This document shows, in pieces, positions 2,045-52,164 of a stretch of DNA of 62,614 bases. Both the position numbers and the translations under genes were made by a program. How positions within the stretch are numbered: position 1 is the first letter of the stretch; each line of letters begins with the position of its first letter. The notes beneath the pieces were generated by a model. The model did not search any database. It was not told where the DNA came from and saw only the letters and a list, made by a program, of their open reading frames with translations. The stretch lies in NCBI GenBank assembly GCA_030646955.1, contig JAUSKM010000033.1, forward strand, positions 1-62,614. Direction: 5' to 3'. The stretch is from a bacterium (lineage in GTDB: Bacteria > Patescibacteriota > Patescibacteriia > JACPHY01).

Positions 2045-2899
2045 ATGAACGGTTGGTCTATTGGTATTTACGCGGGAGCAACTCCGGTGACGCTCGCACC
2101 ACATCCAATGGTACGGAATCCGGTGCTGACCGTCCGGGATGTGCGCGACGTTCGCGCGGCATTTGTTGCTGATCCCTTCATGGTGCAGCACGAAGGTGCG
2201 TGGGTTCTTTTTTTCGAGGTTTTCAACGAGGCCGTGCGGCGCGGGGAGATTGCATACGCAACGAGTCGCGATGGTGTGCAGTGGCAGTATCAGCATGTGA
2301 TACTTCGAGAGTCATTCCACTTGTCCTATCCGTACGTCTTCTGGTGGAATGATGCGTTCTACATGGTTCCGGAAACCGCTGCTGCAGGTGAGGTTCGACT
2401 CTACCGTGCGCGGCGCTTTCCGGATATGTGGAGCGTCGTCGCGACGCTCCTTCCGTACGGCTACGTTGATAGTTCACTGGTGCAGCATGACGGGCGCTGG
2501 TGGATGTTCACTGCTGAAGCTGCGCGGAAAGATACACTGCGCCTCTACCATGCCCCTGCACCCATCGGTCCGTGGCAGGAGCATCCTGCGAGTCCTATCG
2601 TGCAGGGTGACCCGGGCCGCGCGCGTCCTGCAGGACGTGCCATCGTTCACGATGGGCGCATCCTACGCTTTGCACAGGATGCGAGCGAGCGGTACGGGAG
2701 GTGCGTCCGCACATTCGCGGTGACGACGCTCACCGCATCCTCGTACGAGGAGGTTGAACTCGGTGTGATCGCGGCCGCGAGTGGTAAGGGGTGGAACCGG
2801 AGAGGTATGCACACGGTAGATGTCCATGAGCAGCGCCCCGGGCAGTGGATTGCAGCGGTGGACGGTTTTGCGCGTGACTACCTTTTTATTTCCTACTGA
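2045..2899 (+). CDS. Beta-propeller glycoside-hydrolase-like protein of unknown function, of a kind common in polysaccharide loci
   Basis: Track ORF 1886..2899. The sequence from MNGWSIGIYAG...FVADPFMV...WVLFFE...SRDGVQW...YPYVF...FYMVPE resembles GH43/GH32-like propeller blades. The start could be 1886 or 2045. Confidence 0.4.
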   Translation: MNGWSIGIYAGATPVTLAPHPMVRNPVLTVRDVRDVRAAFVADPFMVQHEGAWVLFFEVFNEAVRRGEIAYATSRDGVQWQYQHVILRESFHLSYPYVFWWNDAFYMVPETAAAGEVRLYRARRFPDMWSVVATLLPYGYVDSSLVQHDGRWWMFTAEAARKDTLRLYHAPAPIGPWQEHPASPIVQGDPGRARPAGRAIVHDGRILRFAQDASERYGRCVRTFAVTTLTASSYEEVELGVIAAASGKGWNRRGMHTVDVHEQRPGQWIAAVDGFARDYLFISY

Positions 2900-2908
2900 G
2901 GACGATGT

Positions 2909-3661
2909 ATGCCGTGTATGGAGAGTCGACTTCGGGTGCTGGTGCGACGACACCCTGCCCTGCGGGTGTTTCTGCGGCGGTATTATCCGCCACGGAAGGC
3001 GTTGCGTCGCATCATGCGCCCGGCAATTCTGTGGCCACTGTTGCGGACCGTACGGCCAATCAGTGAGAAATACGGTATTGATCGCGGCGTGCCGGTTGAT
3101 CGATATTACATTGACGCCTTCCTTGCGGCGAACGCACATCACATCCGTGGTGTATGTTTGGAGGTAAAAGATGGCACCTATACGCAGCGGTACGGCGGTG
3201 ACATGGTTGATCGCGTTGACATTGTTGATAGTGACCGGAGCAACCCGCGCGCAACGATCTATGACGACCTCCGGCATCCTACGGTCCTTCGTGATGGGAT
3301 ATACGATTGCATCATCCTGACGCAGGTGCTCCAGTTCATTGATGATGTTGATGTCGCGCTGCGGGCGAGTGCGCGCCTCTTGAAACCGGGCGGGACGATG
3401 CTCGTCACGCTACCAGCACTGAGTCGCATCGATCTTGGTGGCGGGGTGGCTGGAGATTTTTGGAGATTTACCGTCGCGGGCGCTCGACAGCTCTTCGGGC
3501 GCCATTTCACCGTTGACCGCCTCGAGATCCGTTCATGGGGGAATGTCCTCGCGGGCGCTGCATTCTGGGTGGGATGCGCGCAGGAGGATTGCTCGCGTGC
3601 GAATCTTGATTACCAGGATGACCAATTTCCGGTCATCATTTCTGTCGTGGCGCGCGCGTGA
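2909..3661 (+). CDS. Class I SAM-dependent methyltransferase
   Basis: YDCIILTQVLQFIDDVDVALRASARLLKPGGTMLVTLP matches the Methyltransf_11/23 pattern. The stop overlaps the next gene's start. Confidence 0.7.
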   Translation: MPCMESRLRVLVRRHPALRVFLRRYYPPRKALRRIMRPAILWPLLRTVRPISEKYGIDRGVPVDRYYIDAFLAANAHHIRGVCLEVKDGTYTQRYGGDMVDRVDIVDSDRSNPRATIYDDLRHPTVLRDGIYDCIILTQVLQFIDDVDVALRASARLLKPGGTMLVTLPALSRIDLGGGVAGDFWRFTVAGARQLFGRHFTVDRLEIRSWGNVLAGAAFWVGCAQEDCSRANLDYQDDQFPVIISVVARA

Positions 3662-24567: not shown

Positions 24568-26507
<1,940 letters not shown>

Positions 26508-36775: not shown

Positions 36776-36801
36776 CGGGCCGGACGGGACGGTGTTCGAA
36801 C
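36776..36801. repeat. Distal att-like direct repeat (partial copy of the tRNA-Asp 3' end)
   Basis: cgggccggacggga (36776-89) plus ttcgaac (36795-801) equals 41858..41878 except for a 5-nt insertion (cggtg). Confidence 0.65.
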
Positions 36802-37037
36802 AGGACTCCTGCAGGAAATTGCCGAATGGGCTGGAGTCGTGTGGAACGTGGAGGTGTGGGCACGGCAGGCGCAGGGATTACTCGTGGGAGTTTAGAAATC
36901 GAGCGAAAGCGGAGGCCGATACCGTTGGCGGATTCCGGAGCTTGAAATTTCAGTGTTTGATGAGTGGCGCAGAATTTTGGATTCCTCAGTTTCGGCAGAG
37001 ATCTGCAGGGTGTGATATACTTTCCACAGATAGTGTT

Positions 37038-37547
37038 ATGTCTCTCAACCAAGCAAAATACAATTCAAAGAAATTCAAAGAGCTGGTGCTTTATGTGGCC
37101 CAGCAATTTGGTGGCGAGATTAGAGGAAAGAAGCGACTGGCAAAGCTCCTCTACTTTGTTGACTTTGATTTTTTTGAGAAGTACGAGAAACCAGTGACGG
37201 GAAGCGTTTATCGTGCTCTGCCAATGGGTCCTTTTCCGGTCGAATTCCCTGAAGCTATCCGTGAACTAGAGAGTGATGGTTCGCTTTCGACACGCGCTGA
37301 CCAAGAGTGGGGTGAGGGGTACGAACCGACCGTTGTTTACCAAGCAAAACGTGAACCCGACCTCTCCGTTTTTTCGAAGGATGAGGTCGCGATGGTGGAT
37401 CGTGTCATCGGGAAGTACCGTAATCTCACCGGAACAGAGCTTGAGACGCTATCGCATTCGCAGGCCCCATTCGTCGGAACAAAGCCGGGAGAGGACATTG
37501 CCTACGAGCTCTCCTTCTACCGGGAAACCGACTTCAATGATGTTTAG
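37038..37547 (+). CDS. Panacea-domain (DUF4065, SocA-like) antitoxin candidate
   Basis: KKRLAKLLYFVDFDFFEKYEKPVTGSVYRALPMGPFP...LSHSQAPF is the DUF4065 signature. Start moved from 36792 to Met 37038. Confidence 0.8.
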   Translation: MSLNQAKYNSKKFKELVLYVAQQFGGEIRGKKRLAKLLYFVDFDFFEKYEKPVTGSVYRALPMGPFPVEFPEAIRELESDGSLSTRADQEWGEGYEPTVVYQAKREPDLSVFSKDEVAMVDRVIGKYRNLTGTELETLSHSQAPFVGTKPGEDIAYELSFYRETDFNDV

Positions 37548-37908
37548 TGTTGCTCGCCATTCAGCATTTGAGAAGGAGTTCCATGTCCTGTCAAAACGAC
37601 ACGGTCATTTTTTGGATAGGGCCATCGAATCATTCGAGCGTCTCTGTGAGAAACAGTTTGATCCCGTGAGCCCTGTACAGGTGATAGGTCCCGGGAAGTT
37701 GCACATAGTAGTGCAGTATGAGACGTATACGATTCGGAAGGTCGAACTTGCAGTTCCTACGCTGCGCAAGAATCAGTCGCCACGCGTTTGGTTTGCGCTC
37801 TGCGGAACGTCAATGTACTACCTCTGCATCGGAGTGCACGGAGACAACTACAGCGACAATGACATGGACAGAGTCGCCAAAGAGCGTGCGACAGATTTTT
37901 TTAGTTAA
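37537..37908 (+). CDS. Toxin candidate partnered with the Panacea antitoxin; RelE/ParE-like features
   Basis: Its start overlaps the antitoxin stop by 11 nt (ATGATG at 37537). Length is 123 aa. SAFEKEFHVLSKRHGHFLDRAIESFERL and RVWFAL...YYLCIGVHGD resemble the RelE/ParE/HigB layout, but the similarity is weak. Confidence 0.55.
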   Translation: MMFSVARHSAFEKEFHVLSKRHGHFLDRAIESFERLCEKQFDPVSPVQVIGPGKLHIVVQYETYTIRKVELAVPTLRKNQSPRVWFALCGTSMYYLCIGVHGDNYSDNDMDRVAKERATDFFS

Positions 37909-37920
37909 ATTTGTCGGTTG

Positions 37921-37953
37921 CACAAACTCCGCCCTACTAGGGCGGAGTTTGTG
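37921..37953. terminator. Bidirectional hairpin
   Basis: A 14-bp perfect stem cacaaactccgccc/gggcggagtttgtg with loop tacta. It lies between the toxin gene and the minus-strand remnant. Confidence 0.7.
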
Positions 37954-37964
37954 TTTGAGTTACT

Positions 37965-38202
37965 TTATTTCACCACATCGAACAACTTTTTCGGATCATC
38001 AAGCACCTTGAACTCCCAGATGCCGAAGTTGCCGTCGTTATTGACGGCTTGGATCCATTCTTCGGCGGCGGCCCATTTGGCTTTGTCCTGATCGCGGACT
38101 TGTTCCTTCACCTCTAAGAGTATGTGGCGGTCGTTCTCGAAACGGATGAGGAGGTCGGGGTAGTAGGCGTGAATCTGCCCCTGCCAGAGGTAGTAGATTT
38201 TT
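37965..38202 (-). pseudogene. Remnant of the C-terminus of a restriction-endonuclease/helicase-type protein (PD-(D/E)xK-like)
   Basis: The open frame has no start codon: KIYYLWQGQIHAYYPDLLIRFENDRHILLEVKEQVRDQDKAKWAAAEEWIQAVNNDGNFGIWEFKVLDDPKKLFDVVK*. The Y-PD(L/F)...LEVK core and the W..AVN..G.FG.W tail are typical of Res-type enzyme C-termini. A TAA stop lies immediately upstream. Confidence 0.5.
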
Positions 38203-38280
38203 TAAGACACGATCCGTCCTTTGACGTTGTTGCTCCTTTGTGCTAAGAACTACGGAAGCCCGTGATTAGCGCAAAGAAAT

Positions 38281-38712
38281 ATGTCTCGTATATCAACAAG
38301 AAGATTGGTGGTGATCCTCCTGTTTTTGTCCGTTTTTGCAGGAGCTGGTTGTCAGACGACCAGCCAAGCCGAGAATGTTGCTCCTGCGCGCAGTGCCCAA
38401 GCGGTGAGCATAGAGAGGCCCGCTGTCACCACTGTCATCAACACGGCACCATCCCAGGGGGCGCTCATTGTCCCGAGGGAGATGGCTCCGACTCCGAGTT
38501 GGCAACATGATCTTCCAGACAACAGCGTTGAGGATCTTCCCGCTCCTAGGGGGAAATACAAAAACGCTGATGGTCTCAATGTCCCGCGTCCTTACGTTGC
38601 GCCATCTGCACCCGTTGGTGCTTCAGCTCGATGTCGTGATGGAACGTACAGCTTCAGCCAGAATCGCAGAGGAACGTGCTCGCATCATGGAGGTGTTGCG
38701 GAGTGGCTTTGA
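38281..38712 (+). CDS. Lipoprotein with a C-terminal DUF3761 domain
   Basis: The lipobox is LSVFAGAGC. The C-terminus CRDGTYSFSQNRRGTCSHHGGVAEW matches the DUF3761 motif. Confidence 0.75.
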   Translation: MSRISTRRLVVILLFLSVFAGAGCQTTSQAENVAPARSAQAVSIERPAVTTVINTAPSQGALIVPREMAPTPSWQHDLPDNSVEDLPAPRGKYKNADGLNVPRPYVAPSAPVGASARCRDGTYSFSQNRRGTCSHHGGVAEWL

Positions 38713-38721
38713 TAATTGGCG

Positions 38722-41505
38722 CTACCTGAATAAGTTTGCAAACCAGCGAAATAGCCGCTTCCACCATGATGGTTTTGTCTCCGAGACCGCTTCATTGGTC
38801 TCTGTGGTGGAAGCATCTTGTATTGCGTCTTGGTGAGGATCCGCCTGCTCAGGTTCGATGACGATTGATTCCTCCGGAGCACTGTTCGGTTGTTGTTGGG
38901 TCCTTACATTTTCTGTGTCCGTGACCGGTGGCAGCTCCCTAGCTGGCGGTGGTCCAACGAGGTCCCCTGACTTGTTTGTTTTGGGGATGAATAGCTCAAG
39001 CGAATCAAGTTTGTTGAGGTCGATGTCTTCAAGGACAGATACTCTCGAGTACCTGTTGTTCATCGTGTCTCCTTGAGCGAGTGGCGCGTTGTTCGTCCAC
39101 GCATTGATCGTGTTTATTGAGAGAATGTACCCGAGCGCGTTTAGTTCACCCTTGACGACCGCTGACGGGATACCGATGTATGAGCCATCGCGAAGATACG
39201 CGCCACCTCCGGAGTTGCCGTGTTCAAGTATTGTGGTGGTTTTGAGGTATGCCCCGTCAGTACCACTGAAATCGCCACTCGTATACGTGAGCTTCGTGCC
39301 GAATTTCGCAGGAAATCCGTATGCGGCGATGTCGGAACCCAGTCGCGGGTTTTTGTTGCCCCTAGCTACATCGATGCTAGACAGCGGTCTGTTTTGTGGG
39401 TTCCTGAGCTTCAACAACGCAACATCTTGGCTCGGTGAGACTCTCACAATGTCCGCAATGTGTCTCTCTCCGAAGTACGGTTCGTCGTTGAAATCATTGA
39501 TGAACCCCACAAGACATCCGAGCGTCCCCGCTACCACATGCTTGTTCGTTAGAATCGCTCCACTCGAATCGATGACCGTCCCCGAGCCCTGACTTGCTTG
39601 ACGATAATTAACTGGGCAGAGCAATTTTACGGTTGCCTTGACGATTGTATCCTGACCAGTCACTTCTCCGTTTTGTGGAGGTTGTTGTGCGGGTCGGCTC
39701 GGTGTCTCACAGTATTGCGCAGTAGTAGGAGGTGCGGTCTCTGCGCTTGGGCAGTCGAATGACTTTAAACAGTTTCGATTTTGTATCCCCGAAAGAGAGC
39801 ATTCGCTCCAACCACCGCATGTCCACACGTCCGCATTACATGCTGGCTGCGGAGGAGTGCACGCTTGCACCGTCGCGGGTGAGGGAGTCGCGATGATTTG
39901 GCAATCAAATGTTTTGGTGCATGTTCGATTTTGAATACCGCGTCCCGAACATTCGTTCCAGTCATCACAAGACCATGTATCGACAGTGCATGTCGATTGT
40001 GGAGGTGTGCAGTTTTGCGAGGTTGCCGGTGATGGAGTTTCTGCGGTAGGACAATCAAATTTTTTGACACAACTTCTTGTTTGCGTTCCGTATGATGAGC
40101 ATTGATTCCAATCGCTACATGACCAAGTGTCAGTAGAGCATGGTGGAACGTAAGTACACGATTGAGACAACAGAGGATTGCCGCCGACGCATCCTGTCGG
40201 CGATGAAGAAATGACGCTTCTTGTTTGTTGCCCTGACGGAGAACATGCCGACCAATTGGAGTATGCCCACGCAGCGCATGTCGACACCCTAGCTCCAAGT
40301 ATCGTAATTGGAAAGGAATTACTATTGTTTTGTTCAGGGATGGAGATCACCAAGGGAACTTCCTGCCTGATCCTTGTTGAATTATCTTTGACTAGACTCG
40401 GGTCAACAATCCGTATTCGAATTTTTGTATCTGTCCAGCTGATCAAAAAACCCTTTCCTTGGGACTGACCATCAATAAAGACACCTGCCCCCGGCGATGC
40501 GACAAGACCGTCACCAATAATTGTTCTATCCCCGAATCCAGTACCAATAATATCAACCTCTTGATTAAAGTATGCGGAGGCGGGATTGATTGAATTAATT
40601 TTTGGGACTGGCGGCGTACAGCTTTGCTGTAATATTGGATTGCCGCCCGCGCATCCTTCAGGCGATGAGGAAATTATTGTTCGTGATTGCTGCCCATTCA
40701 TTGAGCAAGCATCCCAGCTTGAGTACGTCCATGAGGCGCAAATCGGCGGGGTGTAGGTACAGGATTGTGATGTCGTAGGAGCGGAAACGCCACCCTCGCA
40801 ATCAGAATTTTTACCACACGTTCTCGCCTGTGTTCCTGATGGAGCACATGCGCTCCAGTTCTCGCAAGAGTAGTCGTTTGCCGTACAGGCAGTAGTGCAC
40901 GATTGGGTGAGCACCGGCTCACCGCCAGTACAGCCGTTTGGAGAGGAAGAGAGAACTGTTCTTGTTTGCTGGTTATTGGTACACGCACTCCATTCGGAGT
41001 ACGTAAGGGTAATGCAGGTAGGAGGCGGTGGAACGTAAGTGGCTAGAGTGCCGCGTGTGCAGATTCCTTGATTGTCGGACGCAGAAGCGTACTTCCTTAA
41101 AATGACGTAGGAGCCCAAAGTGCTGCCAGACCCAGGAGCAATCTCAAATTGAATTTCGTTGTCACTCCATGAAAGGAGTCCGAATGGCGTATCATTCACG
41201 CCATCTATTGATCCGCGCCCCCGATAAACCATGAGCACCCCATTATCAGTCGGAACGTAGAGCATCTCGGGGATAGAATCGTCGATGTTCCTGTCGCCAA
41301 ATCCTGTTCCCAGGATCTTCACAACGTCGCCACGAGTAGTCAGGTTCGATGGGGTGAACTCTGATCCAGCAAGGCATCCTGTTGTTTGAAAATCGGTAGC
41401 GGAGTAGGAGCTAGTTGCCGCACGAGCGGACGTAGCACTCGCGAAGAAAATCAACAGGAAGACAACGACGGGCAAGTATTTTTTGATTCTCATATTCATG
41501 TGCAT
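38722..41505 (-). CDS. Secreted trypsin-like (S1/Trypsin_2) serine protease with two IPT/TIG-like segments and seven Cys/Trp TSR-like repeats
   Basis: The signal peptide is KKYLPVVVFLLIFFASATSARA. The triad motifs are TNKHVV (His codon 39538-40), DVALLKL (Asp 39424-26) and GNSGGG (Ser 39211-13). The repeats lie at about 39700..41020. Confidence 0.8.
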   Translation of the reverse strand: MHMNMRIKKYLPVVVFLLIFFASATSARAATSSYSATDFQTTGCLAGSEFTPSNLTTRGDVVKILGTGFGDRNIDDSIPEMLYVPTDNGVLMVYRGRGSIDGVNDTPFGLLSWSDNEIQFEIAPGSGSTLGSYVILRKYASASDNQGICTRGTLATYVPPPPTCITLTYSEWSACTNNQQTRTVLSSSPNGCTGGEPVLTQSCTTACTANDYSCENWSACAPSGTQARTCGKNSDCEGGVSAPTTSQSCTYTPPICASWTYSSWDACSMNGQQSRTIISSSPEGCAGGNPILQQSCTPPVPKINSINPASAYFNQEVDIIGTGFGDRTIIGDGLVASPGAGVFIDGQSQGKGFLISWTDTKIRIRIVDPSLVKDNSTRIRQEVPLVISIPEQNNSNSFPITILGARVSTCAAWAYSNWSACSPSGQQTRSVISSSPTGCVGGNPLLSQSCTYVPPCSTDTWSCSDWNQCSSYGTQTRSCVKKFDCPTAETPSPATSQNCTPPQSTCTVDTWSCDDWNECSGRGIQNRTCTKTFDCQIIATPSPATVQACTPPQPACNADVWTCGGWSECSLSGIQNRNCLKSFDCPSAETAPPTTAQYCETPSRPAQQPPQNGEVTGQDTIVKATVKLLCPVNYRQASQGSGTVIDSSGAILTNKHVVAGTLGCLVGFINDFNDEPYFGERHIADIVRVSPSQDVALLKLRNPQNRPLSSIDVARGNKNPRLGSDIAAYGFPAKFGTKLTYTSGDFSGTDGAYLKTTTILEHGNSGGGAYLRDGSYIGIPSAVVKGELNALGYILSINTINAWTNNAPLAQGDTMNNRYSRVSVLEDIDLNKLDSLELFIPKTNKSGDLVGPPPARELPPVTDTENVRTQQQPNSAPEESIVIEPEQADPHQDAIQDASTTETNEAVSETKPSWWKRLFRWFANLFR

Positions 41506-41825
41506 TATTACAATAATTTGCTTGTTGTAGTAAGTCCTATCTGCCTTTGACCCTCAGAAAGTCAATCTAGTCGGGGAGAGCACAAAGCCCCCCGCCAGCC
41601 AGACGACCTTTCGGTCGCCCATGCCCTTTCGGGCATGACCATCCCTGGATGGCTGAACGAGGGGTTCAGTACCAGGGATGGATTTGGATTGCCATGCCGT
41701 CCTATGAGGACGGTTTAGGCACGGGTTCAATTGGTGAACAAGGAGCAATCCCGCGCTTCGGGACTACAAACCCATCGTATCAAAAAACAGCAGCAATCAA
41801 CCAATGATGCAATGCGCACACAACG

Positions 41826-41852
41826 CAAAACGCGCCCCCTTGCGGGGACGCG
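41826..41852 (-). terminator. Hairpin with T-run downstream of tRNA-Asp
   Basis: On the minus strand, cgcgtcccc-gcaa-gggggcgcg (one mismatch) is followed by ttttgcg. Confidence 0.55.
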
Positions 41853-41857
41853 CTTTG

Positions 41858-41933
41858 CGGGCCGGACGGGATTCGAACCCGCGATCTTCGCCGTGACAGG
41901 GCGACGCGTTGAACCGGGCTACGCTACCGGCCC
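41858..41933 (-). tRNA. tRNA-Asp (anticodon GTC)
   Basis: Hand-folded: acceptor GGGCCGG/CCGGCCC, discriminator G, D arm GCGT/ACGC, anticodon stem TCGCC/GGCGA, loop CT-GTC-AC, T arm GCGGG-TTCGAAT-CCCGT. CCA is not encoded. Confidence 0.9.
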
Positions 41934-51748: not shown

Positions 51749-51765
51749 AGTGTAATTGCCAATTA

Positions 51766-52164
51766 TGGAGGTGGGGGGAGTTGAACCCCCGTGTGGTGCA
51801 TGCGTTGACCAATTCCTTCTCCAGGCACAGTCCTGTTCATGATGTCTCGCGTGCGCTTAAACAGGACAAAACGCGCACGTGATGAGCCCCGATGTCATCT
51901 CGATCCGCCGACGAGGCGCACAGCAGATCCAGCTCGATGATATTGCACCCGAGGTGTGCCTATCGAGCATGGGCACATCGGATGGGCAGTGCGGTTAGGC
52001 GACTGCCGAAGCGAGCGTCGGCATACGGAACGCATTGCGAACCGCATCCTTCACCCGGCTGAAAGCGTTGACACTTGCTTTCTTGTTCGCGGGATTTACG
52101 AGGCAGCGAACAACCCTCGGCCTGCTGGATTTGGAACGAATACCCATCGAATCCCGTCACCCCC
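51766..52164 (-). ncRNA. ssrA: tmRNA (SsrA)
   Basis: The 5' end GGGGGTGACGGGATTCGA pairs with the 3' end CACCTCC-A, giving a G3:U70 wobble. The T arm is GGGGG-TTCAACT-CCCCC. An internal open frame ends in ...LASAVA-TAA. It lies immediately downstream of smpB. CCA is not encoded. Confidence 0.85.

Follow-up and report, generated by a model that had tools for sequence, protein, structure and literature searches.

Panacea domains (formerly DUF4065) are hyperpromiscuous antitoxin domains, and pairs of a Panacea antitoxin and its toxin (PanA and PanT, together PanAT) have been called in genomes on the basis of the distance between the two genes, the conservation of the pair, the absence of a longer operon, and reciprocity (Kurata et al., 2022; PMC8832971). 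In the same work, PanA proteins pull down with their toxins. Another study describes stand-alone Panacea domains as neutralising toxins directly, while in multidomain PanA proteins the appended elements do so (PMC10440598). Dataset S1 of Kurata et al. (2022, PNAS), a survey of 20,209 genomes, already lists pairs of Panacea and RelE-like toxins as clusters T14, T28, and T59; in the portion of its tables considered here, the entries from Patescibacteria are a few Saccharibacteria only (PMC8832971). Here we analyse a 62,614-nucleotide (nt) stretch of DNA (contig JAUSKM010000033.1 of the GenBank assembly GCA_030646955.1, hereafter the window), in which two overlapping genes at positions 37038 to 37908 encode a Panacea protein and a small partner protein. 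We propose that they form a type II toxin-antitoxin (TA) cassette of the PanAT kind, carried on a decayed island at a tRNA-Asp gene, and that the toxin is probably a ribosome-dependent mRNase, a reading to which we give a probability of about 0.6. A preliminary description of this DNA, made from its letters alone, had suggested a divergent or new PanT toxin. The toxin family is indeed uncatalogued (it has no model in Pfam, NCBIfam, or PADLOC), but the pairing is not of a new kind, as Panacea/RelE-fold systems are documented in the part of the survey cited above.

The first gene, panA (37038..37547, forward strand, from the ATG at 37038 to the TAG at 37545-37547), encodes a protein of 169 amino acids (aa), which had been recognised from the start as a DUF4065/SocA-like Panacea protein. 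The motifs quoted in support of this are present in the open reading frame (ORF), and the assignment is confirmed by a Pfam match to PF13274 (SocA_Panacea) over residues 34-143 (E 2.6e-19, 70.7 bits for a cutoff of 25.7); PanA also matches PHROG 1281, a family of no known function. We favour the ATG at 37038 as the start, because the corresponding alignment column is the start in 60 of the 75 family PanAs and because the frame upstream of it is broken by a 7-nt indel relative to a close relative, L159. Longer versions of the protein (251 aa from a GTG at 36792, 195 aa in one public gene call) were rejected on these two grounds. PanA carries no helix-turn-helix (HTH), zinc-binding (ZBD), PAD1, or Phd-C domain and thus consists of a bare Panacea domain, followed by a C-terminal tail of ∼25 aa (residues 147-169). 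Although not covered by the Pfam domain, this tail is among the best-conserved parts of the protein, T148, I154, Y156, L158, Y161, R162, T164, and F166 being invariant across 12 diverse PanAs. A promoter-like site found by a consensus scan precedes the gene (36992..37021, forward strand: TCGGCA, an 18-nt spacer, and TATACT with a TG upstream, i.e., an extended -10), and would drive its transcription; in the alignment with L159 the conserved portion is the -10 part, with the TG-n-TATACT element (ending at 37021) kept.

The second gene, the panT candidate (ORF B, forward strand), extends from 37537 or 37540 to 37908 and encodes 123 or 122 aa. It opens with ATGATG, and its overlap with panA amounts to 11 nt from the first ATG (37537) and to 8 nt from the second (37540). 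The ORF and its overlap with the antitoxin stop stand as previously described, but the start at 37537 is the less likely one: L159 holds the second ATG only, which makes 37540 (122 aa, 8-nt overlap) the likelier start. Searches of Pfam, NCBIfam, PADLOC, PHROGs, and (with phmmer) PDB sequences returned nothing for ORF B, and neither of the two proteins matches a PADLOC-DB v2 model at E up to 1. Among 5.8 billion proteins, a word-indexed search retrieved seven relatives (44-91% identity), all without annotation; when a profile was run in full against 1.84 billion cluster representatives, a family of 98 clusters emerged at E up to 1e-3. These come almost all from Patescibacteria, to which the family is confined as far as seen. 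No model of Pfam or NCBIfam, including those of the RelE/ParE superfamily (ParE_toxin, YafQ_toxin, HigB-like, and Gp49 in Pfam, RelE/StbE and similar ones in NCBIfam), is matched above its cutoff by the family consensus or by any member of a 66-sequence alignment; the best sub-threshold Pfam matches, each of a single member, are to YafQ_toxin (E 0.033) and ParE-like_toxin (E 0.074), and noise-level matches in these scans are to Blr_divisome and the coiled-coil-like Sipho_Gp157. A PDB profile search with the toxin family gave chance matches only (E above 0.1). The partner could not be placed in a named toxin family at the outset, and all of these sequence and profile searches lead to the same result.

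The two genes travel together. On the toxin side, we searched one genome per GTDB species with a narrow pattern drawn from an 8-sequence alignment (the 66-sequence alignment contains no stretch conserved enough for a locus pattern), and found 69 loci. They lie nearly all in metagenome-assembled genomes (MAGs) of Patescibacteria, including Moran-, Parcu-, Sacchari-, Nomura-, Vogel-, Uhr-, Kaiser-, Magasanik-, and Falkowbacteria, the other labels being one KSB1 and a few placeholder 'Gammaproteobacteria'. A PanA of the same clade is encoded directly upstream and on the same strand in all 68 loci that could be assessed, with an overlap of 4, 8, or 11 nt in most GTDB loci and of 4 or 8 nt in most relatives. 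On the PanA side, an alignment of PanA searched against metagenome contigs retrieved 415 relatives, of which the 80 closest were counted: 77 are followed by the toxin gene, two lie at a contig edge, and one (in L091) is an orphan, i.e., the toxin family is found downstream of PanA in 77 of 78 assessable loci. The same arrangement occurs on the contigs of P0003 and P0007, and in total more than 140 independent contigs carry the ORF pair. Co-variation with DUF4065 neighbours, proposed earlier as a check on the pair, is thus found from both sides (68/68 and 77/80). When all flanking ORFs were clustered, no family was present in more than six loci. The two overlapping, co-oriented genes are therefore an autonomous, reciprocally conserved module that has no other conserved neighbour. 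In the terms used to call PanAT pairs, the locus presents a Panacea domain, co-orientation within 100 nt (the two genes overlap by 8 or 11 nt), and a pairing that is conserved, reciprocal, and not part of a longer operon. The dN/dS (ratio of non-synonymous to synonymous substitution rates) relative to L159 is about 0.10 for each gene (0.106 for panA and 0.103 for the toxin gene), and both are therefore subject to purifying selection. The module extends the range of PanAT systems in Patescibacteria, in which it is both common and mobile, with at least 69 GTDB species representatives and the 415 metagenome relatives of PanA.

The synonymous rate itself (dS, relative to L159) is three times higher in panA (1.46) than in the toxin gene (0.45), with the excess located in the middle of panA. 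This contrast suggests that recombination may have taken place within the pair.

The way in which the module decays is one-sided. A truncated or frameshifted toxin homologue stands beside an intact PanA in 10 of the 68 GTDB loci and in 7 of the 77 metagenome loci, and PanA is never the broken partner in the loci examined. In L091 (2492-4217), the orphan PanA is followed by no toxin gene and then by a gene for a 390-aa protein resembling the one that adjoins the toxin-bearing module in L007. Such a pattern is the one expected for a toxin and its antidote, and is suggestive in this respect, although not a proof. It bears on the possibility that ORF B would be a non-toxic partner of PanA with a RelE fold, for instance a regulator or cofactor, in a module that serves a different function. 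The toxicity of ORF B is a prediction, 10 of the predicted systems in the NetFlax validation were non-toxic in Escherichia coli (PMC10440598), and the window toxin is substituted at two conserved positions, all of which could speak for such a partner. A harmless partner would however not readily account for the breakage or loss of the downstream gene in about 9-15% of loci with PanA intact in all of them, and gene order, overlap, and autonomous two-gene mobility follow the pattern of type II TA systems. We consider a non-toxic ORF B quite unlikely, and retain the toxin of a type II pair as the preferred interpretation.

The substitutions concern residues 57 and 67 of the toxin (codons at 37705-37707 and 37735-37737), which are I or V57 and R67 in the window copy as well as in its two closest relatives. 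The family majority at these positions is R57 (73%) and W67 (80%).

What kind of toxin ORF B could be is indicated by its predicted structure. An AlphaFold2 model built from the 66-sequence alignment (predicted local distance difference test, pLDDT, 95.2; predicted template modelling score, pTM, 0.89) consists of b1 (residues 4-7), a1 (9-22), a2 (24-40), b2 (55-60), b3 (65-70), b4 (83-89), b5 (92-99), and a3 (107-122). This topology, with b1, a1, and a2 followed by an antiparallel sheet of three or more strands, is of the RelE/ParE type, and the fold is predicted with high confidence. When the model was compared to the PDB with Foldseek, as had been advised in the preliminary description, all high-probability matches were toxins of the RelE/ParE superfamily: Mycobacterium tuberculosis HigB1 on the ribosome (probability 1.00, template modelling (TM) score 0.59 over 122 columns), Helicobacter pylori HP0892 (0.99), Cami1 (0.97), YafQ (0.96), Vibrio cholerae HigB2 (0.91), and the HigB proteins of E. 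coli and Streptococcus pneumoniae (0.90 each), followed by YoeB (up to 0.84). An earlier independent model, from the 8-sequence alignment, had pointed to the same toxin families, and the best match in BFVD is an unnamed viral protein of 98 aa (probability 1.00, TM 0.55/0.66). The loose RelE/ParE/HigB-like features noticed at first in the sequence are thus matched by a predicted fold that is closest to the HigB/YafQ/HP0892 mRNases.

The conservation of the family would be compatible with an mRNase. In a 123-sequence alignment, P82 (100%), H101 (99%), Q80 (94%), Y105 (93%), and R83 (91%) are the leading positions, followed by K68 and N104 (89% each), W67 (80%), and H56 (74%). A forced global alignment with hhalign, which is not significant, places the invariant H50, W55, R60, and H63 of YafQ on H56, W67, R77, and Q80 of the family, and likewise its invariant P66-D67, W68, H87, D89, and F91 on P82-R83, W85, H101, D103, and Y105; the positions so aligned are the most conserved of the 123-sequence alignment. 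From these, a putative active site would be formed by H56, K68, R77, Q80, and R83 on the face of the sheet, with the H101-x-D-N-Y105 motif contributed by the end of the last strand. Catalysis by YafQ, YoeB, and RelE relies on His, Arg, or Lys residues of the sheet plus a C-terminal His and an aromatic residue, a set that ParE-type gyrase poisons are not known to have. As the conserved residues of the family may correspond to this set, we favour a ribosome-dependent mRNase.

The same cassette and fold would also be compatible with a ParE-like toxin that poisons DNA gyrase instead of cutting mRNA, given that the fold is common to RelE and ParE toxins and does not by itself tell them apart (PMC10440598); M. 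tuberculosis ParE2 is among the Foldseek matches, and the sub-threshold similarity to ParE-like_toxin mentioned above (E 0.074, one family member) points in that direction as well. ParE2 nevertheless ranks only 42nd with a probability of 0.51, whereas all matches with a probability of at least 0.9 (HP0892, HigB1, Cami1, HigB2, YafQ, and HigB) are mRNases, and the family keeps near-invariant His, Arg, and Tyr residues at positions that would correspond to the catalytic ones of RelE-type RNases. A gyrase poison thus appears unlikely, and an mRNase remains the activity that we attribute to the toxin in the following.

Compared to the toxins that it resembles, the family shows both shared and distinctive traits. 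HigB1 (Rv1955; PDB 7nbu, 7awk), a ribosome-dependent mRNase, is its best full-length structural match (123 versus 121 residues), with a sequence identity of 16%; the toxin has no Pfam match to HigB or Gp49-type families, and it is partnered by PanA where HigB1 is partnered by HigA and a SecB-like chaperone. The core fold is also shared with YafQ (of E. coli YafQ-DinJ) and HP0892 of H. pylori (PDB 4mmg, 4lsy, and 2otr; probability 0.96-0.99). The end of the last strand carries a G-x-H-x-D-x-aromatic motif in YafQ (G85-S-H87-S-D89-L-F91) as in the present family (G99-x-H101-x-D103-N-Y105), the YafQ motif being the family consensus, as E. coli YafQ has A89. Ahead of the penultimate strand, the two have in common R-x-x-[H/Q], shortly after it P-[D/R], and then W. 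The present family differs from YafQ and HP0892 in being ∼30 residues longer, with a C-terminal helix (107-122) and longer loops, and in having Q80 in place of the catalytic H63 of YafQ and R83 in place of its D67; the antitoxins are unrelated, and profile-profile similarity to YafQ is not significant, nor is an hhalign comparison of the toxin family to the single E. coli YafQ and HigB sequences. As the replacement of the YafQ His and Asp by Q80 and R83, the additional C-terminal helix, and the lack of a detectable sequence link to RelE families would also fit a distinct chemistry, we considered that the toxin might form a branch of the fold specific to Patescibacteria, with another chemistry or another target, and be controlled by a stand-alone Panacea domain sensing phages or host contact. 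If true, this branch would be a lineage-specific abortive-infection or island-guarding system, in a lineage where immunity is almost unstudied; we hold this to be improbable, and consider a RelE-type mRNase paired with PanA as the reading to be compared with published PanATs.

Among the latter, the cassette shares with PanATs that have a RelE-like PanT a Panacea gene in first position, an overlapping toxin gene (-4, -8, or -11 nt), the status of a cross-species module, and a RelE/ParE-type fold. Cluster T14 (PMC8832971) includes Saccharibacteria pairs with a -11 overlap; one representative toxin has an HHpred probability of 99.7% to HigB-2 and the Saccharibacteria PanAs of the cluster have an N-terminal HTH, whereas the family described here hits no Pfam or NCBIfam RelE model and its PanA has just the Panacea domain and the conserved tail. 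This distinction follows the published description of T14, rather than a sequence comparison. With this finding, the partners of the Panacea antitoxin come to include a toxin family that had not been catalogued, and the general understanding of TA systems is unchanged. Its tight reciprocal pairing with a PanA devoid of accessory domains makes it a simple case of how a bare Panacea domain, or its tail, may neutralise a RelE-fold toxin.

We propose that ORF B would act as a ribosome-dependent mRNA endonuclease of the HigB/YafQ/HP0892 type, which PanA would neutralise by direct binding through its Panacea core and/or its conserved C-terminal tail. We infer a neutralisation of type II because in published work stand-alone Panacea domains neutralise directly and PanAs pull down with their toxins. 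Overlapping translation would couple the production of the antitoxin to that of the toxin, and if PanA were lost or inactivated, the toxin would be released, leading to cleavage of mRNA in the ribosomal A site and to a stop of growth. Possible triggers are loss of the island, proteolysis, or a cue sensed by the Panacea domain, and the biological role would be a stabilisation of the island or an abortive defence against phages. In the type VI system SocAB of Caulobacter, the antitoxin has the same Panacea/SocA domain as PanA, so that PanA might instead be an adaptor that hands the toxin to a protease without sequestering it, a view to which the weak matches of PanA to the NCBIfam model SocA_antitoxin (NF047745, E 7.7e-4) and of one toxin family member to SocB_toxin (E 0.0086) lend some support. 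PanA stays far below the equivalog cutoff of SocA (19.2 versus 190 bits) and is not its equivalog; SocB similarity is absent in 65 of the 66 toxin members, and the toxin is predicted to have a RelE fold and is unrelated to SocB. In addition, every PanAT pair examined to date in pull-down assays has formed a direct complex (PMC8832971). Delivery to a protease therefore seems very unlikely, and the mechanism is probably direct binding, as the type II reading supposes.

Several points weigh against the proposed PanAT cassette with an mRNase toxin. The toxicity of ORF B and its neutralisation by PanA are putative, and the window toxin carries non-consensus residues at two positions that are well conserved in the family (R57→I, W67→R), which may have altered its activity. 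The link to RelE/ParE toxins rests on predicted structure and is not demonstrable at the sequence level: the Foldseek E-values are weak (1e-2 to 1e-1), and hhalign against a YafQ profile (37 sequences, shallow, effective number of sequences (Neff) 2.6) aligns the b1-a1-a2 part only, with E 0.012 and a probability of 3.5%. The mapping of catalytic residues is likewise drawn from the non-significant alignment described above. A PanA without HTH domain leaves autoregulation without an explanation. Finally, a scan of IMG/VR viral contigs found no relatives of the cassette, and a phage-borne origin is thus unsupported; together with the lack of PADLOC and PHROG matches of the toxin, this leaves a role in phage defence without direct support.

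The cassette lies at the left end of an island of ∼5.1 kb (36776-41871) that stands out by its guanine-cytosine (GC) content of 0.47-0.54 against a background of 0.60-0.68. The 14-nt repeat CGGGCCGGACGGGA occurs in two exact, direct copies, at 36776-36789, where it marks the left boundary and GC content falls from 0.60-0.67 to about 0.49, and at 41858-41871. Because the right copy corresponds to the 3'-terminal 14 nt of a tRNA-Asp(GTC) gene (41857..41933, reverse strand; found by ARAGORN and Rfam), we take this gene to be the integration site of the island. The left repeat is also the exact point from which the sequence is homologous to L159. In a control set of 15 other loci with nearby tRNA genes, no att-like repeat of 11 nt or longer was found, so that the tRNA-Asp repeat is specific to the island in the window. 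The island contains no integrase gene and looks like a decaying integrated element. Such elements are a typical home for TA pairs.

In L159, positions 90-139 resemble positions 41824-41871 of the window (92% over 50 nt), i.e., the hairpin at the tRNA-Asp end, and this hairpin is joined directly to the left end of the island. This arrangement could be a circular junction of the attP kind, or else the flank of tRNA-Asp in a different host. Among 60 GTDB loci, nine (L012, L015, L020, L024, L035, L036, L047, L063, and L065) have a tRNA gene (Gly, Ser, Glu, Leu, or Arg) at most 250 nt away from the module, with its 3' end towards the latter, far above the expectation from tRNA density; the 4-kb flanks of these loci yielded no att-like repeats.

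The pair is closed by a strong hairpin, as had been noted earlier, which separates the toxin gene from the convergent remnant of another gene (37921..37953; arms 37921-37936 and 37938-37953). It begins 13 bases past the toxin stop, has a perfect 16-bp stem, and folds with an energy of -30.1 kcal/mol (z = -6.6), which none of 200 shuffled sequences equals. It is 91% identical in L159, the substitutions of L159 falling in the left arm. As no U-run follows, the consensus terminator scan does not call the hairpin, which can be regarded only as a putative terminator.

The remnant (37965..38200, reverse strand) comprises ∼77 C-terminal codons of a nuclease-like gene of the PD-(D/E)xK type, of which L159 (1306-2058, reverse strand) keeps at least 250 codons, the breakpoint of the deletion in the window lying at about 38212. 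It displays the motif YYPD(L/F)LIRF...LLEVK, in which the conserved EVKG reads EVKE in the window, and the L159 protein has a weak match to TnsA-like_N. Downstream of the cassette follows a gene for a DUF3761 lipoprotein (38281-38712, forward strand; PF12587, E 6e-24). A DUF3761 gene (63 aa) also lies directly after the toxin gene on the P0003 contigs L002-L004, and this family may accompany the module repeatedly in some of the loci. The cargo also includes a gene for a 927-aa protein (38722-41505, reverse strand) with a signal-peptide-like N-terminus, many Cys-rich repeats of ∼45 aa (TxQSCT...C), and a C-terminal trypsin-like peptidase domain (PF13365, E 7e-17). Between the start of this protease gene and the tRNA-Asp gene, Rfam detects a LOOT RNA (RF03000; 41602-41721, reverse strand; 78 bits for a gathering score of 46), for which the literature searched gave no functional description.

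Beyond the island, the window contains a one-piece transfer-messenger RNA (tmRNA; 51763-52164, reverse strand, 120 bits) and a GroEL gene (24885-26507, forward strand). The GroEL is 91% identical to that of one MAG and 81-85% identical to those GroELs carrying a taxon name, which are labelled Ca. Uhrbacteria or generically Patescibacteria. A high-GC host (about 64%) outside Patescibacteria that acquired the island across phyla was considered and rejected in view of these relatives, and judging from its GroEL the host is an unusually GC-rich, Uhrbacteria-like member of Patescibacteria. On the KSB1-labelled contig L028, a second PanAT (2239-3627) lies 1.6 kb from the module studied here; by reading its sequence, rather than by a domain search, we assign it a toxin-first order, with an MqsR-like toxin and a ZBD-HTH-Panacea antitoxin of 339 aa.

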